A stretch of DNA of 64,000 bases from an uncultured virus (IMG/VR IMGVR_UViG_2061766007_000275) (IMGVR_UViG_2061766007_000275); one strand, 5' to 3'. Positions 1-24,457 are shown, counted from the stretch's first letter. Program-made: numbers and translations. The notes: generated from the sequence alone by a model not told the origin.

Positions 1-1
1 C

Positions 2-121
2 TGGGCAAACAAGAATGAAGTTAAGTACGAGGAAGTCGAGGACGGCTATCTGGTCACTGTTCCGGCAAACCTTTCAGACGAGGACTTTGAAAAGGTCATT
101 AACATGGTACTGGGCGAGTAA
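2..121 (+). CDS. 3' end of a hypothetical protein (partial)
   Basis: Open frame WANKNEVKYEEVEDGYLVTVPANLSDEDFEKVINMVLGE*, followed by a terminator hairpin. Confidence 0.7.
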   Translation, partial: WANKNEVKYEEVEDGYLVTVPANLSDEDFEKVINMVLGE

Positions 122-310
122 TCGCCCAGTTTTTTACTTTTGGCTCCACGCGCGCGCCCGCCGCGTGGAGTTTTCAGAATAGTGTGAATTGTCAGACAAT
201 TTTACAATGATCTTGGAGTTGTCAGACAATAGACTTGAAATTCCTAAAAAGTTCAACTATAATTATGCTATTTTGTGCTTGACATTTCCGTCAATCCATG
301 ATATAATGTA
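111..310 (+). repeat. Intergenic module copy 1 (terminator, 27-nt hairpin 144-170, TCWGACAAT repeats, promoter)
   Basis: CTCCACGCG/CGCGTGGAG stem; TTGTCAGACAAT twice; TTGACA...TGATATAAT. Confidence 0.9.
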
Positions 311-359
311 TTCACAAGGTAAGGGAAAGAACCTTACAAGAGAGAGAGAGGTAGACAGT

Positions 360-668
360 ATGATAAACATTAGGTCACTTAAAAAGCTTGGTAACAATGA
401 CGGATTGACATTAAAGAAGGGTAGCAAAGTTTATTATAAGACTGGCTATCAGGTAGCAACAGAAGGTATAGAAACTACCGACATAAAGGTTGCTATGAAG
501 TCAATCAAGGCATACAATGGTGATTGTGGTATCTGGTTTGCAGATGGTGTTTGGTACATAGACAAGAGCCACAGAGTAAACACCAAAAAAGAAGCCCTTG
601 CGGTAGGTAGGGCTTGCAATCAGATTTCAGTTCTGAAGTGGTCGGATATGAGCTTGGTGTACTGTTAA
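360..668 (+). CDS. hypothetical protein
   Basis: ATG at 360 after GAGAGG SD and a promoter; the track start at 189 runs through the repeat module. Confidence 0.8.
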   Translation: MINIRSLKKLGNNDGLTLKKGSKVYYKTGYQVATEGIETTDIKVAMKSIKAYNGDCGIWFADGVWYIDKSHRVNTKKEALAVGRACNQISVLKWSDMSLVYC

Positions 669-695
669 TCAGTACACCAAAGAAAGGGGTAATAT

Positions 696-845
696 ATGTA
701 TAATGTGCAAATGTTTTATGACAAAGAGCGTGGAGCATGGGAATTGGTTGTTGATGGAGAATGATACTTCGAGGGCAACTATGAATAAGTAGAAAAAATG
801 GCTGAAAGTTTTTGGTTTAGTGATGAGGAGTGGGATAGCATATGA
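696..845 (+). pseudogene. small acidic protein with two in-frame stops
   Basis: MYNVQMFYDKERGAWELVVDGE*YFEGNYE*VEKMAESFWFSDEEWDSI*; SD upstream; ATGA overlap with next gene. Confidence 0.6.
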
Positions 846-1105
846 AGAAGAAAATAATCGGTTTAATTTTAACAGCAATTTTTACAATAATCTTACTTGC
901 GGGATGCGGTAACAAACAATATTTTGATTTTAACTATACTTTTAATTATGCTTACATCGAATTGCCAAATGGTGATGTAGTAGACGGCTTGGTTGAAAGT
1001 TGGAAAGACTACGAAGGCGAACAGTTGCAAATCAAGATTGATGGTATTGTGTACCTCACAAACTCTTTTAACTGTGTGTTAATTTACAATCCAGAATTTG
1101 ACTAA
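842..1105 (+). CDS. phage lipoprotein (paralog of 18527-18814)
   Basis: Signal peptide with lipobox LAGC; shared FDFxYxFNYAY...WxDYEGEQLQ motif. Confidence 0.8.
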   Translation: MKKKIIGLILTAIFTIILLAGCGNKQYFDFNYTFNYAYIELPNGDVVDGLVESWKDYEGEQLQIKIDGIVYLTNSFNCVLIYNPEFD

Positions 1106-1280
1106 AAGTGCGGAAACGCACTTTTTTGTTTTTGGCTCAGCGCGGCCGGGCGTTGCGCTGAGTTTTTGGCATTATGGATATTGTCTGACAATTTCAACAT
1201 GGATCACGAGTTGTCTGACAATTAGGTTAAAATTCCTAAAAAGTTAGACTTGACTTTTCAGTTATTCTGTGTTATACTTT
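1105..1280 (+). repeat. Intergenic module copy 2 (27-nt hairpin 1136-1162)
   Basis: Terminator AAAGTGCG/CGCACTTT; CTCAGCGC/GCGCTGAG; TTGTCTGACAAT twice; TTGACT...TATACT. Confidence 0.9.
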
Positions 1281-1310
1281 AGTTACAGTAAAGGAAGAGA
1301 GGTGAACAAC

Positions 1311-1460
1311 ATGAAGAAGGGCATGGGTTTTGCAAGCAAGGAATGCGGTGTTTATCGTGGTTGGCAATGGTGGGTAACTAATAAGGAAGGTCGCAGAATA
1401 AGCCACAAAATAATTCGTCAAAAAATGAAAATAAAGCTTGACAAAATTGAAAATCTATGA
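1311..1460 (+). CDS. small basic hypothetical protein
   Basis: ATG after GAGAGG SD. Confidence 0.6.
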   Translation: MKKGMGFASKECGVYRGWQWWVTNKEGRRISHKIIRQKMKIKLDKIENL

Positions 1461-1498
1461 TATAATATATTTACAATAAAGAAAGAGAGGAAAACAAT

Positions 1499-1636
1499 AT
1501 GAAGCTTTCAACACTCATTGACTACTATCAGTCAAAACAGAAGGACACAAAGTCCAAGAACACTACTGGCATTATCCTTGATGTTTGCTATGCAAACAAG
1601 GATAAAAACACAAACACAAGAAAGAGAGGTAAATAA
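1499..1636 (+). CDS. small hypothetical protein (not in ORF track)
   Basis: Promoter at ~1438-1466, GAGAGG SD, 45-codon ORF. Confidence 0.55.
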   Translation: MKLSTLIDYYQSKQKDTKSKNTTGIILDVCYANKDKNTNTRKRGK

Positions 1637-1637
1637 T

Positions 1638-1847
1638 ATGGGTATGACAGCATTATGTTACACAATAGGTAGCAAAGGAACTACAAGCTATTCAGAAGCT
1701 TTAAGGTTGAGTGAGGAACTTCATCAGCCAATCGTAAGACACTATGTACCAGTTCCCGAACAAAGAGAACTGACCGCAGAAGATAAGCGGTTGAGAGATT
1801 TAAGATGTGCCAAGAGGTATGCAAACAAGACTACTAACAAGGTTTGA
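1638..1847 (+). CDS. hypothetical protein
   Basis: SD GAGAGG before ATG 1638. Confidence 0.7.
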   Translation: MGMTALCYTIGSKGTTSYSEALRLSEELHQPIVRHYVPVPEQRELTAEDKRLRDLRCAKRYANKTTNKV

Positions 1848-1862
1848 TAAACCTCTCTTCTT

Positions 1863-2065
1863 GAGAATGGCGGAAACGCCATTCTCTTTTTTGCTTTTGG
1901 CTCGGCGGGCGCAGCCGGTTCGCCGAGTTTTCAGACAATTCAGACAACTCCGACAATTTCAAAGTCCACTTGGAATTGTCAGACAATTCAGCTAAAATTC
2001 CCAAATAGTCGCAACAGAATTGACCTAAAAAGTGCTTGACATTCTCATTATTTGGGTGTATAATA
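1863..2065 (+). repeat. Intergenic module copy 3 (27-nt hairpin 1901-1927)
   Basis: CTCGGCG/CGCCGAG; TCAGACAAT repeats; AATTGTCAGACAATT palindrome; promoter. Confidence 0.9.
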
Positions 2066-2097
2066 AAGACACAAAGAGAGAAAGAGAGGTACACGGT

Positions 2098-2565
2098 ATG
2101 ATTAAGTATTTAGTGTTTGACATGGATGGCACGATAGCCGACCTGTACGGTGTCAAGAATTGGTTACCAATGCTACGTCAAGAGAATGTAAAGCCTTATG
2201 AGATAGCAAAACCGCTATATGATATGGACACCTTAAATGCCTTGCTTACAGAATTAAAGGTTTTCGGCTATCGAGTAGTAGTAACCACTTGGTTAGCAAA
2301 AGACAGTTCAAAAGCATATAGCAGAGAAGTTGAAAAAGCTAAAAAAGAATGGTTGAACAAATGGGGTTTTCCATATGATAGATTTTATGGTGTTCCATAT
2401 GGTACACCTAAACAAGAAGTAACAAGAGGAAAAGCAGAATATCAAATACTTTTTGATGATAATGATGATGTTCGAGCAAGCTGGGATTTAGGTTATGCGG
2501 TAGACGCTAAAGAAAATATCTTAAAAGTTTTAGCAGACTTGCTGATAGATTTAATAGAGAAATGA
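2098..2565 (+). CDS. HAD-superfamily phosphatase/nucleotidase
   Basis: Motif I VFDMDGTIAD and motif IV LFDD. Confidence 0.85.
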   Translation: MIKYLVFDMDGTIADLYGVKNWLPMLRQENVKPYEIAKPLYDMDTLNALLTELKVFGYRVVVTTWLAKDSSKAYSREVEKAKKEWLNKWGFPYDRFYGVPYGTPKQEVTRGKAEYQILFDDNDDVRASWDLGYAVDAKENILKVLADLLIDLIEK

Positions 2566-2575
2566 GGTGGATTAT

Positions 2576-2821
2576 ATGAAGAAAGAAACAATCATTAACC
2601 AGTTAGAAGAATACTTAACAGACGAGGTATTCTTAATGGCTTGTAGCTTATCGGTAAAGGGTAAAAAGGTAGCTGATGATAAGTTAGCAGAGAAAGCAAT
2701 AGACCGAATGAATGGAGCAGTTCTCTTTGCTAAAAAGTTAGGCATACCGTATGAGGAAATAGATAGCTTACTTACTCATAACAGATTACAGATTTACAAA
2801 ATGACAAAGCCTACCCCTTAA
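2576..2821 (+). CDS. hypothetical protein
   Basis: ORF with GAGGTG SD. Confidence 0.7.
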   Translation: MKKETIINQLEEYLTDEVFLMACSLSVKGKKVADDKLAEKAIDRMNGAVLFAKKLGIPYEEIDSLLTHNRLQIYKMTKPTP

Positions 2822-2857
2822 AGGGGTAGGGATACCAAAAGAAAAGGAGATAAAATT

Positions 2858-3346
2858 ATGAAAAATAAAGTAGATAAAAAGCCTTTAATAATTGACGCAA
2901 TGGATTGCTTCAAATATGTTCTTGAGCATATAGACAATGATATCTGGGATTTAATAGTAGACAATGTATCTGCATATTTTGATGAAGTATTCAAAGACGA
3001 ATTACCAATTACTGATGATGAGCAAGATATCTTACAAGAACAGTTAGTAGATTATTGCTTTGACAAGATTTATAGTCTTAAAGAAGAAAAAAATGAGGAC
3101 GAAAATGTCTATACACTCACTAATGAGGACGGACAGGAACTCAAAATCAAGATTGACGAAGTACTCGATTACCTTACAGAAAAATTGTATGGTTGGAGAA
3201 ACTATGATTGGACAGATGTAAATAGAGCCGTTGAGATGTACCTTTATGAGCGTCCAAAAATGACCGCAGAGAACTTTACCTATTTAGTTAAATCAGGTCA
3301 AGTTGCGAAACTGACAGATAGGTTTTACACCATCTGTGATAAATAG
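2858..3346 (+). CDS. acidic hypothetical protein
   Basis: 162-aa ORF, AAGGAG SD. Confidence 0.75.
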   Translation: MKNKVDKKPLIIDAMDCFKYVLEHIDNDIWDLIVDNVSAYFDEVFKDELPITDDEQDILQEQLVDYCFDKIYSLKEEKNEDENVYTLTNEDGQELKIKIDEVLDYLTEKLYGWRNYDWTDVNRAVEMYLYERPKMTAENFTYLVKSGQVAKLTDRFYTICDK

Positions 3347-3356
3347 CCACTCAAAG

Positions 3357-3530
3357 CGAGCCGAGAGGTAAAAACCTTTTGGCTCGTGGCGTGCGGGCGC
3401 CGCCACGAGTTATCAGACAATTCAGACTAGTTCAGCAATTCCGCACTCAACTTGGAATTGTCTGACAATTTGATCAAAAATCCCGAAAAGTTAGACTTGA
3501 CAATTCAGCTATTGTGTGATATACTATGTT
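3357..3530 (+). repeat. Intergenic module copy 4 (27-nt hairpin 3383-3409)
   Basis: CTCGTGGCG/CGCCACGAG; AATTGTCTGACAATT; promoter. Confidence 0.9.
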
Positions 3531-3560
3531 TACAAGGTAAGGAAAGAGAGGTAAACGCCA

Positions 3561-3791
3561 ATGGACAAATATAAAATATTCGAAAGATTGCAATATCTCG
3601 TATTTGTTCTGTTGATTGCAGGACAGATAACAATAGGCAAGAATTATTTATTCGGACAGTTCCTTTATTTATGCGCTAACTTTATTTCGGTATCAAGATG
3701 CTTTGTATTACAAAGACCGAAAGCAGACAAGGTAAAAGATATTGGCTGTTCATGTATAACAATCGGTTGCCTAGCAAGTACATTTATTTAA
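3561..3791 (+). CDS. small membrane protein
   Basis: Three hydrophobic segments; SD. Confidence 0.7.
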   Translation: MDKYKIFERLQYLVFVLLIAGQITIGKNYLFGQFLYLCANFISVSRCFVLQRPKADKVKDIGCSCITIGCLASTFI

Positions 3792-3804
3792 GGGGGTAGA
3801 AAAT

Positions 3805-4095
3805 ATGTTAACACTTGATTTAGTTCCTATAAATGGTATTGCTATATATAGCAATATTGAAACCAAAGAAACTTATATAGAATTGTGGGGAGCAAGCACA
3901 AAACATCCCGATGTAAGTTATTGCTTCTCTAAATATCAAGAGAAATATAATCATTGTAGCTGGTTAGAAAATGTTTCTTTAATATATCAATGGATATTAG
4001 AATGTGCAAGCTTATTATCTATACCATATCATAGTTATGAATTGGCTAGTTTAGCCAATGAAATATATGCAACTTACAGGGGGTGGATAAAATGA
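3805..4095 (+). CDS. hypothetical protein
   Basis: ORF with GGGGT SD. Confidence 0.65.
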   Translation: MLTLDLVPINGIAIYSNIETKETYIELWGASTKHPDVSYCFSKYQEKYNHCSWLENVSLIYQWILECASLLSIPYHSYELASLANEIYATYRGWIK

Positions 4096-4265
4096 ATATT
4101 AGATATTATTCTTATTGTAGTGGCGGTATCTGTACCGCCACTGTACCAGAAGATTTAGAACAAGAGTTGTTAGAAAAATGGAATAACAACCAAAAGAAAC
4201 TAAAGAAAATGGGTATTAAAAGTTTTGAAGAATATGTTATCACAGTTTACAGTATGAATTATTAA
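4092..4265 (+). CDS. hypothetical protein
   Basis: Short ORF in operon with SD. Confidence 0.6.
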   Translation: MNIRYYSYCSGGICTATVPEDLEQELLEKWNNNQKKLKKMGIKSFEEYVITVYSMNY

Positions 4266-4277
4266 GGGGGTAGAAAA

Positions 4278-4457
4278 ATGGCAAGAACAAAAGGTAGATT
4301 AACAGAAAAAGGCGCTATGGAAATCATGGACAAAATAGCTTTACTTATTTATTGTAGTGGTTCGGTTGAAGATGAGGACTTAACTAAAGAGACACGAAGA
4401 ATTTTTCTTCAACTATGTGATTACTATGGAATAACAGAAATAGAAGAAAACAACTAA
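4278..4457 (+). CDS. hypothetical protein (not in track)
   Basis: MARTKGRLTEKGAME... after GGGGGT SD. Confidence 0.6.
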   Translation: MARTKGRLTEKGAMEIMDKIALLIYCSGSVEDEDLTKETRRIFLQLCDYYGITEIEENN

Positions 4458-4473
4458 AAACTTTCTCTCTCTT

Positions 4474-4670
4474 GGGGTTCTCGTGCGCGGGAACCCCCTT
4501 TTTGACTGCTCGCAACGGGCCGCCGCGAGCAGATTTTTAGAATATTCAGACAATTCAGACATTTTCAAGATCCGCTTGGAATTATCAGACAACTTAACTA
4601 AAAATCCCGAAAAGTCTAACACAAAGAATGTAAAAAACGCTTGACTTTCCCATCTTTTGGGTGTATAATT
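4474..4670 (+). repeat. Intergenic module copy 5 (27-nt hairpin 4506-4532)
   Basis: CTGCTCGC/GCGAGCAG; TTCAGAC repeats; promoter. Confidence 0.9.
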
Positions 4671-4984
4671 AGCTTGTAAGGATGAGAGAGATAGTCCTTG
4701 AGAGGTCAAGCAAAAAAAACTTAAAAAAAGTTAAAAAAGTGCTTGACAAACTCAAAAAGATGTGATATAATAAGGATGTAAGGAAAAGAGATAAGCGACT
4801 AAAGAGGTCTGCAAAACTTCCTCTGAAATGAAACCCTTGCAAGGTCATGAAGATACAAAAAGCAGATTAGTCAATGAACCAACCTTACAAAAACATTTTT
4901 CTCAAAGTAACAAACCGCACATTGACAACTTAATAGGGTATCAACCCACAAACAAAAAACAAAAATCAGAAAGAGGTGTATATT

Positions 4985-5380
4985 ATGAAGAACACTATTA
5001 CTAAGTCTACTATTTATACTACTATTAAGTCTTATGTTTCAGAGCACAGTGCCGATTTCTCCGAGGAGATGTATGAAGCTATCATCGACCGCATGGGCAA
5101 GGATATCGAGCTTGCTTCCAAGAAGTCCTCTGGCACTAGCAAGGCACAGCAGGAGAAGGATGCTTTCAACAAGGATATTCAGACTGCTATCCTTAACACT
5201 CTTGCAGACAAGGGAACTATGATTTATGCCGACCTTATCAAGGCGGTACAGGGTACTTTCTCTGACGTAGAACTCTCACCGCAGAAGATTACTGCAAACG
5301 TAACCAAGCTTAAGGGCGAGGTTGAGAAGTTCGAGGACGGCAAGGGCAAGTCCAAGAAGCTTTACATCAAGCTTGCGTGA
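4985..5380 (+). CDS. putative winged-helix DNA-binding protein (paralog of 7195-7584)
   Basis: ILNTL...YADLIKAV...SPQKITANVTKL...LYIKLA pattern; strongly biased codons. Confidence 0.6.
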   Translation: MKNTITKSTIYTTIKSYVSEHSADFSEEMYEAIIDRMGKDIELASKKSSGTSKAQQEKDAFNKDIQTAILNTLADKGTMIYADLIKAVQGTFSDVELSPQKITANVTKLKGEVEKFEDGKGKSKKLYIKLA

Positions 5381-5404
5381 GAACCGCTCACGCTTCACCT
5401 TTAC

Positions 5405-5605
5405 AGAGGGGCTAAATGCCCCTCTTTTTTGTTGCTTTTGGCTCGTTGCAGCCGGCCGCTGCAACGAGTTTTCAGACTATTCAAAATATTCAGACAATTT
5501 TGCCGCCAAAATCTAATTGTCAGACAATTTAACCGCAATCCCGCAATAGTTCTACAATAAAAACGCAAATTGTTCTTGACTTTCACAAATAGATGTGATA
5601 TAATT
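5405..5605 (+). repeat. Intergenic module copy 6 (27-nt hairpin 5442-5468)
   Basis: CTCGTTGCAGC/GCTGCAACGAG; AATTGTCAGACAATT. Confidence 0.9.
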
Positions 5606-5730
5606 CAATTACAAGGTGAGGAAAGCAAATGGCAAACAAAAAAAGTAGTAAAAAAAAATAAAAAAAATGCTTGACAAGCCGAAAAAAATGTGATATAATT
5701 AAATCACAAAAGAAAGAGAGAGGTGGTTAG

Positions 5731-6240
5731 ATGAAACAAAAGCTAAAAGGTGTTCATGCACTAGAGCGAATATTTACTGATATGTTTGCAGAGTTCGGTA
5801 TTCGCAAGGTTAGCATGGGCAAGGATTATGCTTATTGGTATAATCTTGAAGAAATCACATTTTGTCCTTATGAGAAAATAGAGGATAAGTGGTTTAATGA
5901 ATTTGTAACTAATAGGTTCCCCGATATAACGCTAGGCAGTTCTTTAATTATAGGGTTCTTGCATGAAGTCGGTCATCACGAAACAATGGACGATATATCA
6001 GAAGTAGTACAATCTATGTGTGATGAAGAAAAAGAGCGCATAGAAACAGAGATAGAGAACTCCAAGAGTGAAGAAAGAATAAAGGAACTTGAATGGGAAT
6101 ACTTCAATCTGCCAGACGAGATAATGGCTACATATTGGGCGGTTGAGTATATCCGCCAAAACCTAGAGCAAGTAAACCGCATGAATAACCTTGCGGAACT
6201 CGCTATCAAAAAGTTTTACGCTATCAACAATATAAATTGA
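5731..6240 (+). CDS. putative zinc metallopeptidase-like protein
   Basis: HEXXH motif FLHEVGH with a downstream E..A. Confidence 0.6.
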   Translation: MKQKLKGVHALERIFTDMFAEFGIRKVSMGKDYAYWYNLEEITFCPYEKIEDKWFNEFVTNRFPDITLGSSLIIGFLHEVGHHETMDDISEVVQSMCDEEKERIETEIENSKSEERIKELEWEYFNLPDEIMATYWAVEYIRQNLEQVNRMNNLAELAIKKFYAINNIN

Positions 6241-6292
6241 GGTTGGGGCGAAAGCCCCTAACCTCTCTCAAATAAGAAGGGAGAATATAAAA

Positions 6293-6529
6293 ATGGCAAC
6301 AGTACAATCAAAAACAACAGTAACACTTACAAAAGAAGATTTAGCAGATTTAGGAACAGCTCTTGATGTTCTTGAAAAAATAAGTGACGGACTAGACACT
6401 TACGGAAGAGATTGGACTTCTCTTGATGTTCTTTGGAATGGTATTCAAAACCCAAATGTGGGAGAAGATTTAGGTAATGCTTTTGAAAGTTTATCATGTG
6501 TACTTACTTTTTTTAAGGGGGTGAAATAA
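6293..6529 (+). CDS. hypothetical protein
   Basis: SD; resembles 6533 and 9251 ORFs. Confidence 0.7.
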   Translation: MATVQSKTTVTLTKEDLADLGTALDVLEKISDGLDTYGRDWTSLDVLWNGIQNPNVGEDLGNAFESLSCVLTFFKGVK

Positions 6530-6532
6530 ATT

Positions 6533-6772
6533 ATGGCAGGCATTGAAGTTATAAAACAGGTTGTAGTTACTCTTTCAGAACAAGAGTTAAATAAGCTAAT
6601 TGAAGCTAGGCAAGTATTAAAGGACATTGATGATCGTCTTAATGACATGAATTTAGAACTTGACAGTGAAGATGTAGTTTTTGCAGATTATGACAATGAC
6701 TATCCAGCCGGGGATAAGCTTTGGGATATTTATTCTTTGCTTGATGAAGTAATTTGTTGTTACCAAGCATGA
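6533..6772 (+). CDS. hypothetical protein
   Basis: SD; resembles 6293 and 9251 ORFs. Confidence 0.7.
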   Translation: MAGIEVIKQVVVTLSEQELNKLIEARQVLKDIDDRLNDMNLELDSEDVVFADYDNDYPAGDKLWDIYSLLDEVICCYQA

Positions 6773-6779
6773 GTGCGGA

Positions 6780-6960
6780 AGGTCGCTCTTCGGAGCGACC
6801 TCTCTTTTTTTTGGCTCAGCGTGCGGGGTCGGCACGCTGAGTTTTCTGAATATTCTGAATTGTCTGACAATTTTGCTTCCGCTTGCGAATTGTCTGACAA
6901 TAAAATCAAAAATCCTAAAAAGTCTAACTTGACAAATTGAAAAAATTTTGATATAATGTA
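6780..6960 (+). repeat. Intergenic module copy 7 (27-nt hairpin 6815-6841)
   Basis: CTCAGCGTGC/GCACGCTGAG; AATTGTCTGACAAT twice; TTGACA-17-TATAAT. Confidence 0.9.
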
Positions 6961-7137
6961 TTTACAAGATAAGAGAACGGCACAAACAAAGAAATAAAAA
7001 AAATAAAAAAAGTGCTTGACAAATCTTAAAAAGTATGATATAATAAATACACAAGATGAGGAAAGCACAAAGCACTGAAAAAAATAAATAAAAAAAATAA
7101 AAAAGTGCTTGACAAATTAAAAAAAATGTGTTATAAT
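6929..7137 (+). promoter_or_regulatory. three tandem sigma-A promoters
   Basis: TTGACA-N17-TATAAT with TG extension at 6929, 7016 and 7109; upstream A-tracts. Confidence 0.9.
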
Positions 7138-7194
7138 TATCTTGTAAGAAACAAAGAAAACAAAATAAAAAAATCAAAGAAAGAGGTGCTTGAA

Positions 7195-7584
7195 ATGAGC
7201 GAGAAGAAAATCACAAAGAAAGAAGTTTATGGAGTAGTAGTTGATGTGTTTAATGGCAAGGTATCAGTTGACGAAGTATCGGCTGATATGGTATCAGCAA
7301 TCCTTGACCGCATGAGCAAGGATATTGAACTTGCAAGCAAGTCTGGTGTTAAAAAGGAAACTGATAATGACCGTCTGAATAAGGATATTCAGAACACTAT
7401 TCTTTCTACTCTTGAGGGGCAGGGTACAATGGTATATGCTGACCTTGTAAAAGAGGTACAGGCAGTATACGAGGGTGTTTCTGCACAGAAAGTTACAGCC
7501 AATGTAACAAAAATTAAAGACCTTGTCGAGAAGTTTGAGGACGGAAAAGGCAAGGCAAAGAAGCTCTATATCAAGTTGGCGTGA
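7195..7584 (+). CDS. putative winged-helix DNA-binding protein (paralog of 4985-5380)
   Basis: Near-identical C-terminus EKFEDGKGKAKKLYIKLA. Confidence 0.6.
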   Translation: MSEKKITKKEVYGVVVDVFNGKVSVDEVSADMVSAILDRMSKDIELASKSGVKKETDNDRLNKDIQNTILSTLEGQGTMVYADLVKEVQAVYEGVSAQKVTANVTKIKDLVEKFEDGKGKAKKLYIKLA

Positions 7585-7599
7585 GCCAACTTGACTTCC

Positions 7600-7658
7600 G
7601 GGGCGTGGATTGGTCGGAGCCAAACAGAGACAAATGGGTTCAACTCCCATACGCTCCA
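7600..7658 (+). ncRNA. tRNA-Ala/tmRNA-like mini RNA 1
   Basis: Acceptor GGGGCGT/ACGCTCC-A (G3:U70), T arm ATGGG-TTCAACT-CCCAT, no D or anticodon arm. Confidence 0.6.
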
Positions 7659-7751
7659 TAGAGGTTTCTTCAATGGTGGTAATTCTTTCCTAGCATAAAA
7701 TAAGAATATTCATTGATAACTCGATAACTATGAATACCACCAAATTTTTAA

Positions 7752-7860
7752 GGGGCGTAAATGTCACATCAGGGCAGTGACCAAAGTAAACCGAAAGGTG
7801 ATTATGAAATAGGCATTTTACAAAAGTTGGCTTATTGGGGTTCAATTCCCCTACGCTCCA
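7752..7860 (+). ncRNA. tRNA-Ala/tmRNA-like RNA 2
   Basis: Same acceptor GGGGCGT/ACGCTCC-A, T arm GGGG-TTCAATT-CCCC, three internal hairpins. Confidence 0.6.
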
Positions 7861-8069
7861 GAGGTGACTGGGTTCCACCAATTCAAATGTGCCCAATGTA
7901 CGCGTATGTGACAAATAGGGTTTCTATTCTTCTATTACCCAAAGCAAGAAGAAAGGGGAGAGTATTTTCGTTGTGGTGAAAAACGAGGCTCACTTTGAAC
8001 TCCCCGAGGTTTTCTCGACAGTTTACCTCAAGAAAATCAAAGGTCGGAACCTCTCCGAAACTGTCACAA

Positions 8070-8245
8070 CCCCACAGGTAACTGTGGGGTATTTTTTTAA
8101 CTGGGCGGCGAGGGTCGTGCCGCCCAGCTTGTCGAATTGTCGGAATATTCTGACAATTTCAAAATAGATCAGCAATTTTCAGACTATTTAACCAAAAATC
8201 CCAAAAAGTTAGACTTGACTTTTGGTTACTCTTGTGCTATACTAT
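8070..8245 (+). repeat. Intergenic module copy 8 (27-nt hairpin 8101-8127)
   Basis: CTGGGCGGC/GCCGCCCAG; TCTGACAAT; AAAAATCCCAAAAAGTT; promoter. Confidence 0.9.
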
Positions 8246-8375
8246 ATTTACAAGGTAAGGAGAGAGCAGTAAGCGGTCACCACACAAGAAAAAAAATAAA
8301 AAAAGTGCTTGACAAAACTTTCCACCTATGATATAATAAGTATGTAAGATAAAGAAAGAGAGGTAATCAAAAAAA

Positions 8376-9074
8376 TTGAAGATTGACAGACGGAAACGGT
8401 ATCTAGTAGTCCTAGATACAGAAACTTGCAACACGCCCAAAGATGAGAAAGGGGGTTTAGATGTATCAAGCGGTTTAGTCTATGATATAGGTTGGGCTAT
8501 TATAGACAAATGGGGTACAGTATATCTCACAAGAAGCTTTATTATAAGTGAGATATTCAAAGATGATGTGCTTATGAGTTCTGCTTATTATGCTAAAAAA
8601 ATCCCAAAGTATGAAGAGGATATAAAAGCAGGAACTAGGCAAGTAGTTAACTGGTATCAAGCAATAAATTGCTTGAAAGAAGATATGGCACTGTTCAATA
8701 CAAATATAGTGATAGCACATAATGCGCCTTTTGATTATCGGGTGATGAACAGTACAGAAAGATATCTCACAAAAAGTAAATATCGTTACGCTTTACCTTA
8801 TGGAACAGAAATATGGGATAGCGTGAAGATGGCAACTGATACAATAGGTAAACAGAAAATGTACCGCAAGTTTTGTAAAGAAAATGGTTTTATGACAAAA
8901 CATAAACCGCCTAGAGTAAAAATGACAGCGGAAGTGCTCACAAAATTCTTTAATGATGATGTAGATTATTCGGAAGAGCATACCGCACTCGAAGATGTAC
9001 TAATCGAGAAAGAAATAGTCGCAAGATGTTACAGAACACATAAAGCTATGAGGAAGAAAGCGTGGGGAGATTGA
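8376..9074 (+). CDS. DEDDh 3'-5' exonuclease
   Basis: ExoI VLDTET, ExoII AHNAPFD, ExoIII HTALED. Confidence 0.9.
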   Translation: MKIDRRKRYLVVLDTETCNTPKDEKGGLDVSSGLVYDIGWAIIDKWGTVYLTRSFIISEIFKDDVLMSSAYYAKKIPKYEEDIKAGTRQVVNWYQAINCLKEDMALFNTNIVIAHNAPFDYRVMNSTERYLTKSKYRYALPYGTEIWDSVKMATDTIGKQKMYRKFCKENGFMTKHKPPRVKMTAEVLTKFFNDDVDYSEEHTALEDVLIEKEIVARCYRTHKAMRKKAWGD

Positions 9075-9250
9075 TATCTCCCCAGAAAGGAGCAAAAAAT
9101 GAACGAATATTGGGTAGATTTTAGAGGTAGTCTCCGCATTAAGGCGGAAACCGCACAAGAAGCCGGAGAAAAAGCTAGTTTATTACTAGACAAAAAAGGA
9201 ATAGAGTATACAGAAATTGAATACGTTGATTATATAGGAGAGTGTGAAGA

Positions 9251-9496
9251 ATGAAGAATGTAATTTTATTAGACAAAGAACAGACTTTAGCATTAACAAA
9301 GGCACAAAACATATTAGAAAATATCCTAGACATGGAAGATAAATTATCCAATATCATGGATGAAAATGACACTATTGAGGTTGAAAGCTATGATGGTATG
9401 CCTTATGTTAATGGCAATATCGAGAAGGCTTGGAGAGCCTTGTATAAGTTGAATTTTGAAACTTCAGAGGAATATGAAGATGAGGTGGTTGGATAA
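9251..9496 (+). CDS. hypothetical protein
   Basis: SD AGGAG; resembles 6293/6533. Confidence 0.7.
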   Translation: MKNVILLDKEQTLALTKAQNILENILDMEDKLSNIMDENDTIEVESYDGMPYVNGNIEKAWRALYKLNFETSEEYEDEVVG

Positions 9497-9700
9497 CCAC
9501 CTCTCTTTTTTGGCTGCGGGCGCACGGCCCTCGCCCGCAGTTTTCAGAATATTCAGAATATTCACACATTTTTGATCCAAAAATTCAAATTTTCAGACAA
9601 TTTATTAAAAATCCCGGAATTTTCAGACAATTTAGCAATATTTTAATTAAAAAACATCAATTTTCCTATTGACAAATTAAAAAAAATATGATATACTGTA
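9482..9700 (+). repeat. Intergenic module copy 9 (27-nt hairpin 9514-9540)
   Basis: CTGCGGGCG/CGCCCGCAG; TTCAGAATA and TTCAGACAAT repeats; promoter. Confidence 0.9.
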
Positions 9701-9824
9701 TTTACAAGATGAGGAACGGAACAAAGTCAAGAAAAAAACTTAAAAAAAAGTTAAAAAAAAACTTGACAATCCCGAAAAAGTATGATATAATTCACTTGTA
9801 AGGTAAAGAAAGAGAGGTGGTTAG

Positions 9825-10211
9825 ATGAAAAGCATTAACAAGCAAGAAGTACAGAACCTAATGAAAACTTTAGGGCTGACAGAAGAAGAAGCTATTGAGT
9901 TATGGAAATGTGATAATGATATGGCTGAAAATGAGGAACAAAAAGAACTTGACAAGAAAGCAAGCAAGGTCAAGATTAAAGTAGCTGACGGAAATGTCAC
10001 TAAAGGGGTAAAAAAGCCTAGAACTTATATCTCATGTGACGAGAAGGTGGCGTTATTCAACCTCATAAAGACAACACTTGAAAGTGCTTGTGAGAATGTA
10101 GAAGTCACTAAAGATAATAAACTTCTTACAGTTAACTTTAATGGAGTACAGTTCAAGGTTGACCTCATAAAGACCAACACCGCACTTGCAGAAAGGAAAG
10201 GTAAAAAATGA
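9825..10211 (+). CDS. hypothetical protein
   Basis: Tandem promoters and SD. Confidence 0.8.
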   Translation: MKSINKQEVQNLMKTLGLTEEEAIELWKCDNDMAENEEQKELDKKASKVKIKVADGNVTKGVKKPRTYISCDEKVALFNLIKTTLESACENVEVTKDNKLLTVNFNGVQFKVDLIKTNTALAERKGKK

Positions 10212-11269
10212 TACTATTATTTGATAACACCTGCTCAGAAGAGCAGGTGAGCAATCCTCAATGGGTATGGAATAATTGGGGTGATGGAATACCTTGTTTA
10301 TCATACAGTGAAGCAAATAAACTTAATAATTTTTACTTTGGCGGGAATGGGCATATCGGAATAATGGTTGGGTATGAAACCGCAAAACTTAGGGGGTGGA
10401 CATAATGTGTCAGTGTTTTATTTGTAATAAGGCAGTCAATGAAGATAACTCAATCGGTAGAGATTGCTTGTTAATGTGTAATGAATGTGAAACCAAAATT
10501 GGTAAAAAACTTAATATGCAAAACCATGTAATATTTAGCGTAGTTTTAGCAATGGGTTTCTTAAAAGAAAAATATATGGAAGAAGAAGCTATAAAAGCAG
10601 AAGAAAGAAAATGGAAAGATTACCTTGCTCTGGATGAATTAGCCGCAAAATCAAGGGGGTTGATATAATGAAACAAATTATAAAACAAGGATATGTTAAA
10701 CCGCAATATATCACTGAATGTAATAACTGCCACACATTATTTAGTTTTACTGATGATGATACAGAATATGCAAATGCATCGTATAGTACAGAACAATATG
10801 TTAGATGTCCTTATTGTGGCTATGAAGTATTAGACAGACATTGGGAAAAAGCTAACGAGGCTGAAGGAGGTATGCAAAATGAATGATGATTATGATTTCT
10901 GGGGACAAGCTTGGTCAGAGGACGATGTTGAAATTAAAATAGGTGATAAAACATTTTGGTTAACTAAAAAAGGATTGATTGAATTAATAAATTTTTTAGT
11001 CCAGTTATTAGGACAGACCTAATGAATGAAGAAGAGGGTGATGAATAATGAATGATATTTTTGATAATCAGAACTTAAAAGTTAATGATTTTCAGACACG
11101 ATGCGTGTTAAAAAACAATTTTGGTAGAGATGAAATTATTGATGTATATGCTTACTCTGATACTCTTATCGAGGTTTGTTTAGATGATAAAATTTTAATA
11201 TCATTTGCTAACAAAGATAATTTAATTCTATTTATAAATGCTTTAACCACTGCTTTAGGACTTGTGTAA
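10208..11269 (+). other. operon of small hypothetical genes (10208-10405, ~10405-10668, 10668-10886 zinc-ribbon, 11048-11269)
   Basis: Coupled ORFs with SDs; CxxC pairs in two of them. Confidence 0.65.
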
Positions 11270-11410
11270 ACAAGTCCTTTTTTATTGTATGCTTTTGGCT
11301 GGGCGCAAGCTGGCGCAGCGCCCAGTTTCCAGCCTCTCTCACCCCTCCCTAGCTTTTATATGCGCGATTTTTGCTGGATTTAGCTTGCCCCTAAAATCCC
11401 GAAATTCAAT
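11256..11410 (+). repeat. Intergenic module copy 10, degenerate downstream (27-nt hairpin 11299-11325)
   Basis: Terminator AGGACTTGT/ACAAGTCCT; CTGGGCGC/GCGCCCAG; AAAATCCCGAAA. Confidence 0.75.
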
Positions 11411-11799
11411 AGCCAACCATAACGCCCTACTTTTCAAGCTTTTATGCTCCAGGAACCGGGTTCCCGCCAATAGCAACTAGTATAAGGGGGGTTTAAAGGG
11501 GAGGGGTATGCGGCCTTTGACAAATTATAAAAATTATGTTATAATACGGAGGGGTGTTCTTCACCACCCTATAAATCAATAGCAAATCAATCATGCGGGC
11601 CGGGGGTGTTGGCGCATAGTTGACAAATTAAAAAAATTTTGTTATAATATTAAAAAAAGACTATTTTTTCTCCCAATAGCCAAAGAATAAAAGAGTGCGG
11701 CGGGCGGGTATACAGCGTTATACGAGTGCTTTTAAAAAATTGCATAGGGTGTTGTAAAATGAACCTAGGTTAGGGGCACCCCACCTCCTCAATGATATA

Positions 11800-12340
11800 G
11801 CAATTTTTCAGAATTTTCTGAATTTTTTATAAATTTTCTAACTTGTCTGAATTTTCTGACAATTCTCTTTCACAGTATGGGGGCGCAAAGGAGGCCCCGA
11901 AGGGGCCATATAACTGACAGGAGCGAAGCGACTGTCAGTTACTGTCTGACTGACGCCTGTCAGTGTCAGTCAGATATTATAATTGTTTTTCTGACTGATG
12001 ACAAGTGCTCACATCCGCCGATCAGTCAGAAAATCAGAAAATGGCGCCGAAATTTAAACTTAACGAAAGTCAAATTTATATATCATCCGCCACCCAGTCA
12101 GAAAATTAAGCAAATTTTGACTTTCATTTTCTGACAGCACGCGCCTGTCAGTTATCGTCAGTCAGAAAATTAAAAGAAAATCATAAATAATTTTCTGACA
12201 CCCTCGCTCCATTTTCTGACATTTTCTGACAGGGTAGCGCCATTTTGGCGACCTTCGGTCGCTAATTTTCTGACAATTTTCTGACACCCTCGCGCCTACC
12301 TATCAGCTGTCATTTAATTAATTTTCTGACAACTGACACC
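11800..12340. repeat. iteron-like TTTTCTGAC/GTCAGAAAA array in a non-coding convergence zone (candidate origin or terminus)
   Basis: About 12 copies in both orientations; 10-bp inverted repeat 11911-11941; duplicated TTTTCTGACACCCTCGC. Confidence 0.75.
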
Positions 12341-12413
12341 GAGTGCGGTAACCCTTGCTCTATGGCGCGATCAACCTCCATTTCCGCATAAAAAAAGAGC
12401 CACATAACGGCTC

Positions 12414-12821
12414 TTAAAAAATGTACTGCGGGGTAGGGGGTTTAACTTCCTGACTTTTAGTCCAGATTTCTCTTCCTTCTTTATATCCCCTGTTACTATA
12501 TATACCTCTTGAGAATGGAATACCCAACTTCTCACATATAGCTCTTAAATCTAAACCTTGACTAGCAAGCTCTCTTATAGCATCCGCATCATATTTTTCT
12601 TTCCTACCAGTACCAGCTATTGGATGCTTCTTAGTTATCTTATCTACCTGTGTTAAATATGACAGAACAGTTGCTTTCAAGCTATCTTTTACTTCAATCC
12701 TCTTGTCATACAAACTATATTGAACGATAGCATAAATAACATCTTTAGCATCTTCTTCACTCAGTGAACTATTAATATCATTCACCCAATCATTCAATAA
12801 GATAACCTTACTTTCTGCCAT
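12414..12821 (-). CDS. DUF6291-like (replication-initiator N-terminal) domain plus C-terminal HTH
   Basis: VILLNDW...LSEEDAKDVIYAIVQY pattern; IRELASQGLDLRAICEKLGI HTH. Confidence 0.5.
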   Translation of the reverse strand: MAESKVILLNDWVNDINSSLSEEDAKDVIYAIVQYSLYDKRIEVKDSLKATVLSYLTQVDKITKKHPIAGTGRKEKYDADAIRELASQGLDLRAICEKLGIPFSRGIYSNRGYKEGREIWTKSQEVKPPTPQYIF

Positions 12822-13011
12822 TGTGAACCTCCTTCTTTAATCTAAGGAAGTCCTCTGCAAAATTACCTTCATTCTTAAAAACCCATACAGTTAACTTAGG
12901 GTTATTAGGATTAGGGAAAGTTCCAGTTACTTTATACCCCATACCAGCTAGCATAACAACTAACTTCTTAGTATAAACTGCAACAAAATCCTTTGCTTTA
13001 TCCATCTGCAT
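12808..13011 (-). CDS. DUF5659-like small protein
   Basis: VYTKKL...GY...PNPNNPKLTVWVF pattern. Confidence 0.55.
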   Translation of the reverse strand: MQMDKAKDFVAVYTKKLVVMLAGMGYKVTGTFPNPNNPKLTVWVFKNEGNFAEDFLRLKKEVHNGRK

Positions 13012-13983: not shown

Positions 13984-14568
13984 CTAGCCCCTTTCTTTTG
14001 CTTTTATCTCAGCTATAATATCATCAAGAGCAACTGGTGTACAATTATGTGCATCCACCTCAACATGATATATTAAACCCTTATCCCAATCAGCCCATGG
14101 GTCAGTCACATGGCGGTGACCGCATAGGTTAATAACTTTGCGGGAAAGCGGTTTCCCCTCATTAAAGTTATCACATATAGTAGGATAATGTGATAAATAA
14201 AAAGTTAATTTATCATATTTCAAAATTATAACACAATCGTTATCATCTCTTGAAATAACATTATATGATTTCATATATTCTTGCCATCTATTATCGCTAT
14301 CGTGATTTCCTCTAATAGGTAAGATATTTCCTTTTAACTGACGAAGATAATTCATACCTTTTTCATCATCCATTAGCATAAGATCACCAAGTACAAAAAC
14401 AATATCTGCGGGATTGACTACTCGGTTCCAATTATCTACAATAGCTCTATTCATTTCTTCAACACTATTAAAACCGCGGGGACCCCAGATAAATTCTCTA
14501 TCATGACATAAGTGCAAGTCAGAAGTAACCCAGATCTTCTTGCCGCAATTTTCTTTATCTATTTTCAT
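13984..14568 (-). CDS. calcineurin-like metallophosphoesterase
   Basis: SDLH, GD, GNHD, H, GHRH motifs. Confidence 0.9.
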   Translation of the reverse strand: MKIDKENCGKKIWVTSDLHLCHDREFIWGPRGFNSVEEMNRAIVDNWNRVVNPADIVFVLGDLMLMDDEKGMNYLRQLKGNILPIRGNHDSDNRWQEYMKSYNVISRDDNDCVIILKYDKLTFYLSHYPTICDNFNEGKPLSRKVINLCGHRHVTDPWADWDKGLIYHVEVDAHNCTPVALDDIIAEIKAKERG

Positions 14569-15114
14569 TCATTTCCTCCTAAATGTTGTTTTACAAACCA
14601 AAGAGATTGACTATCATCTAATTCTTCTGCCATTTTCTCTAATGTATATGTAATAAAATAATTAACATCTTCTACATCAGAAAAATCTTCATTTGTAAAT
14701 ACAATGCCTTTAGCCCAAATTAAATCCGAAGTCTTAAAAGTAACTTTTATACCTACTTTTTCATTGCCAATAGTCCAATAAAAGTTATAATCTGCGGCGA
14801 CCCTTGCCGCTTCCTGTGCTATATATCCTATTAAATTAAGCTCAGTCATTCTCTTCCTCCTTATCTGCTTCGATTACTTTCAAAGTAGCATTAGATATAC
14901 CGACTTCACTAATCCAGTTTTGACAACTAAAACTAAAAGATGTAAAATATTTCTTAGCTTTTGCTTCATCAAGAATAAATAATCTTCCGTATTCTTTAGG
15001 AAGTGGTATACCATTCTTAATCCAAGCTACAAGTCTATACGCATTTTGTATAGGAAACTTGCCACTATTGAGTTCCTCATAACATCCATCCGGCATATTA
15101 ATTATTATATTCAT
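14565..15114 (-). other. two hypothetical genes (14565-14849, 14842-15114)
   Basis: Overlapping ORFs with SDs. Confidence 0.65.
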
Positions 15115-15613
15115 TTATTTTTAACTCCTCTGTTATACTAAAATTATCCATAAGACTAGCGCGGGAAACCTTCCAAATATGATTATATCCTTCTGAAAAT
15201 CTTGGCGGCTGATAAGTTTTCGCCATCGACTGGATAACCTCTTCCGGCACATAGGCTCGCCCGCTCCTCTTCCTATTCTGTCTTAATGCTAAATCAAGAG
15301 AAATATCAAAGTAAATTGCATTTATTTCTGCGGCGTCCGCTATGCAGTTTAATACCTTAGCTCTTGATGCGGGAGTGAGGTGTGTGGCGTCAGCATACAC
15401 ATCTTGTCCTGCCGCAAGTCCTTTTTCAATTTTAGATACAAAATATTTCCACACTTGTTTTTCTTTTGAAAAGTACTCATCATCTTTTTCAAGTAATGCA
15501 AATCTTATTCTATCTCTTGAAACATAAACATGGTTACCTTTTATATTATGTTCACAAAAATATGATTTTCCAGAACCGGGGATACCGCATAATAAAAACA
15601 ATCTACCTTTCAT
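15098..15613 (-). CDS. polynucleotide-kinase-like P-loop kinase (AAA_33)
   Basis: GIPGSGKS Walker A, SRDRIR, DATH, R..R lid, VPEEVI. Confidence 0.85.
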   Translation of the reverse strand: MKGRLFLLCGIPGSGKSYFCEHNIKGNHVYVSRDRIRFALLEKDDEYFSKEKQVWKYFVSKIEKGLAAGQDVYADATHLTPASRAKVLNCIADAAEINAIYFDISLDLALRQNRKRSGRAYVPEEVIQSMAKTYQPPRFSEGYNHIWKVSRASLMDNFSITEELKINEYNN

Positions 15614-15625
15614 TTTTTCCTCCTA

Positions 15626-17245
15626 TTAGTGGATACCATATTCCATATCTTCATAAGCATCATCTGCATTGTCATAGTAACTTGTATGACTAGCATATAT
15701 ATGCTGCGAATAGTAGGTATCTAAAAAAACAGTTAGTTCTTCTTCAAAATCATCTAAAGTAAATATTTTCAGTAAATCATCAAATGTTTCTGCCTTTTGT
15801 ACATCTTCATCATTAGGCTCAATTCTTTTTAAGAACTTTAAAAATTCTTTCTTATCTAATTCAAATTTATATACTTTTCGCTCTGTTCTATAAAGTTTCA
15901 TTTTTTTTACCTCTTTTCTTATTTTCTATATATATTATAACAAAAATTTTATAAAAAATCAAAAAGAGTGCATTACTCTGCACTCTTTCTTGAACCCTTA
16001 AACCATCGAACTAAATCTTCTTTACATTCTAAACACAAATCCAAAGTAATGCTTTCAGGATACGGATGACAATATTTTGTTAAGTCATACCGCCATGCTT
16101 CATTGTTAGCTTTTTGTAAAATTTCATGCCAAGTAAAAGTCTTACCGCATCTATCACAAATTTTTGCATTCATTTGTTTTCCTCTCTTTTCACCTTTTCG
16201 CCCTTTGAGCAATAGTCCCAATCACAAACAGCGTGATTTGCATTTAATCCATAGATATGACCACAAATTGATCTAACATTAGGCAGCATGTCGTCATTTT
16301 TATTCTCATAATACAGATCTAATCTATGAATACAATCTTTACATGTTACTACTTCAGTTTTCATTTTTACACCCCCATAATCCTTTAATATTTAATCGTT
16401 TAGCAATATCTTGCTTATCCTTATCTCTTAAACAATAACTAACATTCCATCTTGCATTACAATATAGACAATTTATAACAAAATCTAGATACGGTAACGT
16501 ATATCCAACATCTTCATACTTTACATCTTCATTTTCATATGAAAATTGACATTTACAATAGTCACATTCATACATATGTACATCGGGATTTTTTAATATT
16601 TTTATCATAATTATTCTCCTACCAATCCAAAATCACAATGTCCAGTTTCATCTTTATGATAATCTGCGGCAGCCGCCTTCTCTTCAGCAATCTTTTTCAT
16701 CCATTCTGCATCAAAATCCCATGTCTGACCTTCAGAGTCAACAGCATAACTCTCAATCCAAGCATTACATACTCTTGGATCCTTCTCAGCTTCCTTCATA
16801 ACTGCTTTAGCTTCATCGAGAGACTCATATTCAACTCCGTCCCACTCATGGTCCCAGAGGTCATGCGGAACCTCTATCTCTACCCATACCTTATGATAAC
16901 TTCTTATTATTGTAGGAAATTTATCCATTATTTTTACCTCTTTTCTTATTTTCTATGTATATTATAACAAAAATATTATAAAAAATCAAAAAGAACGTAT
17001 TATTCTATGTTTTTTTTATTTATACAATTAGCAAACCATTTATAAAATTTTGTTAACCCTTTTCCTATACCCATGCCAATACCTATTAATAATATGGCGG
17101 GCCACCCTACAATAGCTATTGCACAAATAGTTTCATCTCCATCTTGCCAATTTCCCCATTTTATATCTATACAAGCCATAAGCATACCAATTAAAAAACC
17201 AATTATAATATAAATTAAAATAAAAATTTTCATATTATTTCTCAC
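15626..17245 (-). other. cluster of small hypothetical genes, several zinc-ribbon (15626-15901, ~15973-16173, 16170-16364, 16354-16608, 16611-16928, 17000-17245)
   Basis: ORFs with SDs and their own promoters; CxxC motifs. Confidence 0.65.
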
Positions 17246-17676: not shown

Positions 17677-17693
17677 TTTTTCTCCTTAACTTT

Positions 17694-19467: not shown

Positions 19468-19476
19468 AATATCTCC

Positions 19477-24442: not shown

Positions 24443-24457
24443 AGATCCGCAATCCTT

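Follow-up and report, generated by a model that had tools for sequence, protein, structure and literature searches.

The first 11.4 kilobases (kb) of a stretch of DNA from an uncultured virus (IMG/VR IMGVR_UViG_2061766007_000275) contain ten GC-rich hairpins that differ in sequence and share one length, 27 nucleotides (nt). We refer to the whole stretch of 64,000 nt as the window. What do these hairpins do between the blocks of early genes, and why are they 27 nt long? Alignment of the ten loci revealed that each hairpin is the 5' part of a composite module of about 190 nt. With moderate confidence, we interpret the RNA hairpin as the built-in terminator or insulator of each gene cassette, analogous to the promoter-early stem-loop (PeSL) cassettes of T4-type phages.

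The original prediction had located all ten hairpins and their stems correctly, and each is 27 nt long, starts with CT, and ends with AG. Their positions are as follows.

144..170, + strand: module hairpin 1, 27 nt, GC-rich.
1136..1162, + strand: module hairpin 2, 27 nt, GC-rich.
1901..1927, + strand: module hairpin 3; the same 27-mer occurs in near relatives L152 (27/27, other gene context) and L141 (26/27).
3383..3409, + strand: module hairpin 4; the same 27-mer (27/27) occurs in near relatives L152 and L165.
4506..4532, + strand: module hairpin 5, 27 nt, GC-rich.
5442..5468, + strand: module hairpin 6, 27 nt, GC-rich.
6815..6841, + strand: module hairpin 7, 27 nt, GC-rich.
8101..8127, + strand: module hairpin 8, followed by CTTG, without a T-run.
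9514..9540, + strand: module hairpin 9, 27 nt, GC-rich.
11299..11325, + strand: module hairpin 10, the last of the series, with a different downstream sequence and without operators.

The ten hairpins have a GC content of 0.70-0.85, compared with 32% for the window, perfect stems of 7-11 base pairs (bp), and an RNA minimum free energy (MFE) of -14.6 to -19.5 kcal/mol. A length-agnostic scan of all 64 kb for hairpins of 18-45 nt with at least seven perfect pairs and a GC content of at least 0.65 returned 14, namely the ten 27-mers and four others of 19, 21, 21, and 24 nt. Mononucleotide shuffles of positions 1-12000 (n=100) contained a mean of 0.03 such hairpins (maximum 1) versus the 12 observed. 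When shuffling was confined to the ten 27-mers, 2.4 hairpins remained on average, and these include the 19- and 24-nt hairpins, which were not touched. As shuffling within the 27-mers destroys the pairing, GC richness alone does not produce it. We built a covariance model from 37 distinct copies (from the window and the near relatives described below). It had exactly ten strong matches in the window (42-54 bits), all on the + strand, and no match in the other 52 kb (12-64 kb).

The modules share one order: a gene-specific terminator, TTTTGG or TTTTGA, the 27-mer, TTTT, TTCWGAMAAT repeats, operators, a box, and a sigma-70-type promoter. The corresponding features in the window are listed below.

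109..136, + strand: canonical gene-specific terminator (stem, tetraloop, T-run) just 5' of hairpin 1.
Starts at 1104, 1863, 4474, 5405, 6780, 8069, 9482, and 11257, + strand: equivalent gene terminators of other modules (simple scan).
171..229, + strand: AT-rich platform after hairpin 1, with TTTT, TTCWGAMAAT repeats, and operators TTGTCWGACAA at 189-199 and 219-229.
237..252, + strand: box AAAWTYCCNAAAAGT (ATCCCRAAA type), upstream of the -35 element.
279..307, + strand: first sigma-70-type promoter of module 1, TTGACA-17-TATAAT with TG.
1250, 2036, 3497, 4641, 5576, 6929, 8215, and 9669, + strand: first promoters of other modules (promoter scan).
1438, 4743, 5671, 7016, 7109, 8309, 9763, 11517, and 11620: extra tandem or internal consensus promoters (promoter scan).

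The original claim that the hairpins come directly after a normal terminator and T-tract is right for nine of the ten modules, in which the simple scan called a canonical terminator upstream, and fails at 3383, where a 30-nt hairpin without a T-run overlaps. Hairpin 3383 is the sole stem-loop with a T-containing tail following the gene at 2858-3346. The 30-nt hairpin (3357-3386), also conserved in L141 and L152, shares 4 nt with the 5' arm of hairpin 3383, and formation of one partly precludes the other. The 5' side of the module hairpin is free, lying 10-25 nt from the upstream terminator.

Downstream, the geometry is tighter. Modules 1-9 all carry an equivalent platform, with TTCWGAMAAT repeats spaced about 10 nt apart and two palindromic operators 30 nt apart, the second of which begins 47-49 nt past the hairpin. 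The operator sequence TTGTCWGACAA has 18 matches versus 1.27 expected, every one within 189-12713. The box, given as AAAAATCCCGAAAAGT in the window modules, lies between the operators and the promoter. Twelve promoter sites match the consensus at 12/12 positions in 12.5 kb, most with an extended -10 TG, and the -35 lies at +83 to +87, +107 to +109, or +128 to +129 from the hairpin, in steps of about 21 nt. In the window clade, operator 2 is at +48 in 18/22 operator-bearing modules, the A-run of the box has an offset of 65-67 in 23/25 modules, and the box is at +66 in 19/25.

A candidate binder of these operators is encoded in the same region. The 131-amino-acid (aa) early protein P1 (4985..5380, + strand) and its paralogue P2 (7195-7584) are each encoded behind double or triple tandem consensus promoters. 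Because their predicted structure (predicted local distance difference test score 84) has a C-terminal winged helix, which is PadR/LmrR-like (Foldseek E 3e-3, template-modelling scores 0.48/0.58), P1 and P2 may bind TTGTCWGACAA. A profile search of P1/P2 against PDB sequences returned only helical-repeat noise. Relatives of P1/P2 occur in 4/5 distant genomes, often in two copies, and an IMG/VR protein search with the 131-aa early protein found no relatives.

Near relatives were sought in metagenomes with a pattern that fixed the flanking sequences and allowed any gap from 13 to 43 nt between them; it returned 55 loci. The insert was 27 nt in all 10 matches that were GC-rich and folded (7 distinct hairpins); among the chance matches, insert lengths were random and no fold was formed. 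The near-relative contigs are 65-84% identical to the window (blastn pieces). These contigs were also scanned for palindromes of 16-50 nt irrespective of length, and the module hairpin was found in every inter-cassette gap mapped. Together, the window and its near relatives contain 41 hairpins (37 distinct), with a 27-nt core in 41/41 and in 31/31 beyond the window. Extended as far as pairing stays perfect, the palindrome measures 27 nt in 29 copies, 29 nt in 10, 31 nt in one, and 37 nt in one; in those longer than 27 nt, the extra pairs are flanking bases around the same core. The 37 distinct copies align without gaps, and all covariance-model matches in near relatives are also gap-free.

The stems (7-13 bp) and loops (5, 7, 9, 11, or 13 nt) trade off, as had been predicted. 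The seven outer pairs are paired in 37/37 copies, with up to four pair types each, and pairs 8 and 9 in 35/37 and 32/37. The earlier claim that pairing is kept in every copy is thus borne out for the outer stem, and because it is kept through compensatory changes, the pairing is under selection. The covariation score is 0.591, compared with 0.184 ± 0.019 in shuffles (0/500 reach 0.591) and 0.06-0.13 in slid registers. A few bases are held as well. C1, G7, C21, and G27 are invariant in 37/37 copies, and C6 together with G22 is found in 33/37. At the apex, the window clade has C12 in 30/37, C16 in 26/37, and G17 in 36/37 copies. After the hairpin, T is present at +28 to +31 in 29, 37, 31, and 28 of the 37 distinct copies.

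How special is 27 nt beyond these close relatives? A 724-aa tail protein finds IMG/VR contigs of 55-175 kb at 31-44% identity, and the DNA of these distant contigs matches the window in promoters only. Their early regions share the architecture of gene terminator, GC-rich hairpin, T-run, clade-specific motif, WTCCCRAAA box, and sigma-70 promoter. The repeated clade-specific motif is TTGTGCAA in G003/G004 and TTTACATAA in G002. A hairpin was counted if it had C as its first and G as its last base, was followed by an A/T-run, and lay upstream of a module; other hairpins (five in G003, four in G004, and three in G005) were left out.

G003: 6/6 module hairpins are 27 nt.
G004: 8/8 module hairpins are 27 nt; there are 8 distinct sequences across G003 and G004.
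G005: module hairpins of 26, 27, 27, 28, and 39 nt.
G002: three perfect 27-mers and four irregular GC islands.
G001: module hairpins of 27, 36, 38, and 38 nt.

Over all lineages, 51/57 distinct perfect hairpins are 27 nt long. The fixed length that was originally claimed therefore extends to the 31 further near-relative copies and to all 8 distinct hairpins of the G003/G004 clade, and breaks down in three distant lineages. Because of these hairpins of 26-39 nt, 27 nt is a strong mode and not an absolute rule. The tail protein of the G003/G004 clade is only 37-44% identical, its sequence from hairpin to promoter is no longer alignable, and 27 nt is also retained in a clade with a wholly different platform sequence. 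In the 14 distant 27-mers, C1, C6, G7, C21, G22, and G27 are all present in 14/14, and the apex has C12 in 9/14, C16 in 12/14, and G17 in 10/14. When all 27-mers are pooled, C1, G7, C21, and G27 are found in 51/51, and C6 with G22 in 47/51. The box begins 68-70 nt past the hairpin in 15/15 distant modules where the pattern was found (26 scanned).

We take the length preference to be real and not absolute. Since the 5' side of the hairpin is free, module geometry does not account for it. In the window clade, the 66 nt 3' of the hairpin are nearly as indel-free as the hairpin itself (4/23 modules shifted by ±1 nt). From four such shifts, about 2.6 indels would be expected in the hairpins, and the zero observed is not significant alone (P about 0.07).

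We compared cassette maps of four phages, in which P marks the two P-family genes, whose order relative to neighboring genes varies, and N denotes a 413-420-aa open reading frame (ORF) without a homologue in the window.

Window: cassette order P, Q, P, X, Y.
L141/L148: cassette order P, N, P, Q, X, Y.
L152: cassette order P, Q-like, N, X, P, Y.
L165/L130: cassette order P, N, Q-like, X-like, P, Y.

Reassortment among these relatives, at the modules, involves both gene cassettes and hairpin types. For example, B and D are in one cassette in L141 and L152, and in the window they are separated by module 1901 and two genes. The hairpin types reassort relative to both flanks: the 1901 27-mer occurs in three gene contexts, and the 3383 27-mer is identical (27/27) in L165 in another gene context. 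Two chimeric modules switch parent at the 3' edge of the hairpin. The prediction that gene content changes at module boundaries thus fits the differences in order and content, and at least one breakpoint is off-module, at the junction of the 2576-2821 and 2858-3346 genes (breakpoints were not formally counted). Because the same module recurs about every kilobase, recombination within modules could exchange cassettes, swapping, adding, and deleting them.

The enzyme that integron-type recombination calls for was not found: the tyrosine recombinase family PF00589 matched in 0/5 related genomes (3 of them at least 90% complete), with the control positive in 14/14. A serine recombinase is present in 1/5. 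The G003 contig has a resolvase-family match (E 4.5e-31) at 74002-74433 (- strand) with four in-frame TAG codons, which could reflect stop-codon recoding or a broken gene. We also considered joints between modules in run contigs as evidence of deletions or circles and rejected them, as all their sides are 20-36 nt and lie inside repeated promoter sequences.

We interpret the module as a portable terminator-operator-promoter cassette that would punctuate an early, host-takeover-type region of about 11 kb, with the hairpin as the cassette's stem-loop. When RNA polymerase has read through the terminator of the upstream gene, the hairpin would fold in the sense-strand RNA and, together with the following TTTT, stop or release the polymerase. 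Release would come before the polymerase reaches the next cassette, with its regulator platform and very strong sigma-70 promoter. A further possible role of the hairpin is to cap the read-through RNA at its 3' end. The order of parts is consistent with this: in all five lineages examined, the hairpin follows a gene and its terminator and precedes a T-run in the direction of early transcription, the platform, and the promoter. A d'Aubenton-Carafa-type terminator score is at least 0 for 6/10 window hairpins.

We infer action at the RNA level, and in termination, in part from strand asymmetry. Mismatches at mirror positions in the 41 copies are G.T/T.G in 40 cases versus A.C/C.A in 16, which favors folding of the sense strand, and the mean MFE is -18.1 kcal/mol for sense versus -16.5 kcal/mol for antisense (Wilcoxon p 0.002). 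The pair just outside the core (-1/+28) is G.U in 19, A-U in 10, and G-C in 2 of 37 copies. The asymmetric apex holds the same orientation relative to transcription across clades, which is not expected of a symmetric double-stranded site.

Several observations weigh against a terminator. Four of the ten hairpins score below 0, and hairpin 8 lacks a T-run. None of the ten 27-mers, whose tails have only four T and whose loops reach 13 nt, is called by the simple terminator scan, and the G001 hairpins have AT-rich loops of 16-20 nt, which are poor for termination. A canonical terminator is already present upstream in 9/10 modules and in every clade, so a second one seems redundant, yet it is universally kept. 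We also know of no reason for terminators to hold 27 nt, as 51/57 do here. The strand bias comes mostly from one subfamily in the relatives, and the window hairpins are split in their better fold (4 on the + strand, 4 on the - strand, and 2 tied). In addition, the hairpin at L152:696-726 is flipped in place: its inner 13 nt match the L165 copy at 12/13 positions in reverse complement and at 6/13 directly, and it folds worse on the sense strand (-13.6 vs -21.6). The universal co-occurring terminator, the weak T tails, and the length preference keep a protein-recognized structure alive as an alternative.

According to this alternative, which we consider possible and rather doubtful, the hairpin would be a structure-specific recognition site in RNA, single-stranded DNA, or a cruciform, where a conserved protein of phage or host reads a few fixed bases (C1, C6-G7, C21-G22, G27, and the apex) and measures 27 nt. 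Such a site could serve in cassette exchange, promoter insulation, or topology control. The 27-nt length in all 41 window-clade copies and all 8 distinct G003/G004 hairpins, the four bases common to all 51 27-mers, and the free 5' side, which leaves the length unexplained by geometry, agree with it. So do the identical 27-mers (27/27) in different flanks and gene contexts between phages, the two parent switches at the hairpin's 3' edge, the copy flipped in place in L152, and the retention of the hairpin despite a canonical terminator. In contrast, no candidate protein was found, hairpins of 26, 28, and 36-39 nt exist, the scarcity of indels extends almost equally over the downstream 66 nt, and the recombinase searches gave a tyrosine enzyme in none and a serine enzyme in one of the five relatives. 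The strand asymmetry also disfavors a two-stranded cruciform. The original proposal was that a protein measures the hairpin; nothing in our results shows this. A ruler-type cis element, with a conserved protein of phage or host recognizing a fold of fixed height and four or five fixed bases at 68-70 nt from the box, is a tentative idea. If it were true, the complex, and not ordinary termination, would insulate cassettes and drive their exchange, making this a cassette system that is structure-specific and lacks a classical integrase.

An RNA processing or stability element is an unlikely explanation. In this case, an RNase specific for double strands would act at the hairpin, or the hairpin would block 3'-exonucleases, in read-through or polycistronic early RNA. 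The evidence for a sense-strand fold at the RNA level applies equally, and a hairpin between every early cassette fits the design, as intergenic RNase III sites occur in the early RNA of T7 and SP82. Like the hairpins here, those are conserved hairpins between early genes of virulent phages; they differ in lying inside polycistronic RNA without intervening terminators or promoters, and they are longer and irregular. The efficient-looking terminator upstream means that most transcripts should not include the module hairpin, and stems of 7-12 bp are short for RNase III. RNA-run contigs cover 1349-1838, 4770-5386, 5745-5910, 7130-8077, and 9825-10198 (one study, contigs and not reads). They cross no hairpin, and DNA contigs do; coming from one study and from contigs only, this allows no inference on transcript ends.

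It is very improbable that the 27 bp form a double-stranded palindromic operator for a dimer, with half-sites at 1-7 and 21-27 whose centers are 20 bp apart. The ends are conserved (C1, T/G2, C6, G7, and their mirror bases), the spacing is fixed, and the block adjoins a platform that, from its sequence, appears clearly to be protein-binding DNA. However, in all 37 copies the variable bases at 3, 4, and 5 pair with those at 25, 24, and 23 (several pair types each), a requirement that a dimer reading double-stranded DNA would not impose, and the apex is asymmetric with its orientation kept across clades.

We give almost no credence to an N4-type single-stranded DNA hairpin promoter for a virion-carried RNA polymerase: GC-rich, DNA-encoded hairpins that recur in the first-transcribed region of a large phage are the sole resemblance, N4 hairpins have 5-7-bp stems and 3-nt loops and are used on the template strand by the virion RNA polymerase, whereas the hairpins here are 27 nt long with 5-13-nt loops and a G.T bias on the sense strand, and each cassette has its own host-type consensus sigma-70 promoter about 85-130 nt downstream (the 12 perfect sites above). 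The single-subunit RNA polymerase family PF00940 matched in 0/5 relatives, a weak result as the control was also silent, and the giant proteins of the window had no polymerase match, with Pfam and PHROGs uninformative. CRISPR-repeat mimics were dropped because the sequences differ between copies. Chi-like sites, restriction decoys, gyrase sites, and supercoil-driven cruciforms were considered as ideas only and then dropped.

A built-in terminator or insulator has its closest parallel in the PeSLs, and the original analogy with them is apt. The PeSL stem-loops of T4-type phages are described as effective terminators and the PeSLs as recombination points (PMC2839356; PMC4122927). Like the module here, a PeSL combines a stem-loop and an AT-rich stretch with a near-consensus sigma-70 promoter in one small unit, is repeated between small non-essential early genes, and coincides with insertions, deletions, and exchanges between related phages (PMC2839356; PMC4122927). 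The early cassettes of the window likewise consist of small accessory or ORFan genes. This phage group is unrelated to the PeSL phages, inhabits the cattle gut, and carries expression signals of Firmicute type. Its module hairpins follow a separate terminator that belongs to the preceding gene, and the module has paired palindromic operators and an ATCCCRAAA box at a fixed 68-70-nt offset. The 27 nt are held with covarying stems, in contrast to the conserved stem motif (GGGG...CCCC type) of PeSLs. A phage-database megablast of positions 1-12000 returned one 62-nt promoter-like match only; with no homology to the T4-type PeSL sequences, the resemblance is one of design and not descent.

The modules thus extend the promoter-plus-stem-loop cassette design of T4-like phages, which have Gram-negative hosts, to unrelated uncultured gut and rumen phages of 100-175 kb. 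New with respect to PeSLs are a length and a few bases kept across clades while the sequence turns over by compensatory change, a fixed offset to a promoter-proximal box, and clade-specific operators. If the length constraint reflects a binding protein, this would be a new structure-specific element organizing early-gene cassettes. If not, the modules are compact natural insulator-operator-promoter units, and their paralogous copies offer a clean example of compensatory evolution.

Two other systems share parts of this design. The host-takeover module of SPO1, a phage of roughly 130 kb that also carries tRNA (transfer RNA) genes, is about 11-13 kb long and packs dozens of very small genes into numerous short operons, each of which has a terminator, a strong ribosome-binding site, and a sigma-A promoter of very high strength. 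No sequence relationship to SPO1 was shown, and we know of no repeated fixed-length hairpin module in that phage. Integron attC sites are recognized by their fold, lie at cassette boundaries, and are strand-asymmetric, as may be the case here. They are imperfect hairpins that vary widely in length, have conserved R/L boxes and extrahelical bases, need the IntI tyrosine recombinase, and go with cassettes that lack promoters; by contrast, the module hairpins have a fixed length, outer stems that are perfect in 37/37 copies, and cassettes with their own promoters. An IMG/VR pattern scan with a free gap returned 63 loci, all by chance and none GC-rich or folded. The same pattern in bacterial and archaeal species genomes gave 34 loci and 0 true ones, with no sign of the element in these cellular genomes. 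Full-text literature searches, which did not extend to subscription journals, turned up no report of a comparable module with a hairpin of fixed length.

The DNA of the window is near-identical to contigs of cattle-gut metagenome runs, and contigs 90-99% identical to it are present in runs X5, X6, and X12 from three other studies. The window is a piece of a large phage, with 20 tRNA genes and tail-fiber and tail genes at 40-64 kb. It also encodes RNA repair: an RNA-repair-type cluster (13984-33738) beside the tRNA block includes an RNA ligase, a polynucleotide kinase, phosphoesterases, and a 524-aa phrog_850 protein. An HNH homing-endonuclease gene (26955-27794) lies in the same stretch. The first 11.4 kb contain about 40 small + strand ORFs split into ten blocks. 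Functional annotation of this region gave no Pfam family above the cut-off (0/26 early ORFs pass) and only weak or unknown-function PHROGs matches. Among them, the early gene at 2098-2565 has weak PHROG matches of the HAD/5'-3' deoxyribonucleotidase type (E about 1e-5 to 1e-4), reminiscent of dmp, a pre-early gene of T5.

Orthologues of hairpin 10 likewise end the early region in L148, L152, and L130, and three relatives conserve the sequence past this last hairpin. Hairpin 10 is followed by a gene-poor zone of about 1 kb (11326-12400) that separates the + strand early region from - strand genes. Within the zone are 12/12 consensus promoters at 11517 and 11620, three further operator-like sites, nested CTGACAG palindromes (11900-11980), and runs rich in C or in G. 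A regulatory boundary and an end of the genome are possible interpretations of the zone.

Positions 7585-8060, after the 7195-7584 gene, are noncoding and contain two 3' halves resembling tRNA or transfer-messenger RNA (tmRNA), with direct repeats GGTTCAAYTCCC..ACGCTCCA near 7637 and 7840. Rfam on positions 1-13000 gave only two tmRNA-like matches (19.3 and 12.9 bits), below the gathering score and unrelated to the hairpins. A 256-nt piece (7661-7916) is missing from related-strain contigs of one RNA run and one DNA run. As it is missing from the DNA-run as well as the RNA-run contigs, this is a DNA-level variant and not splicing.

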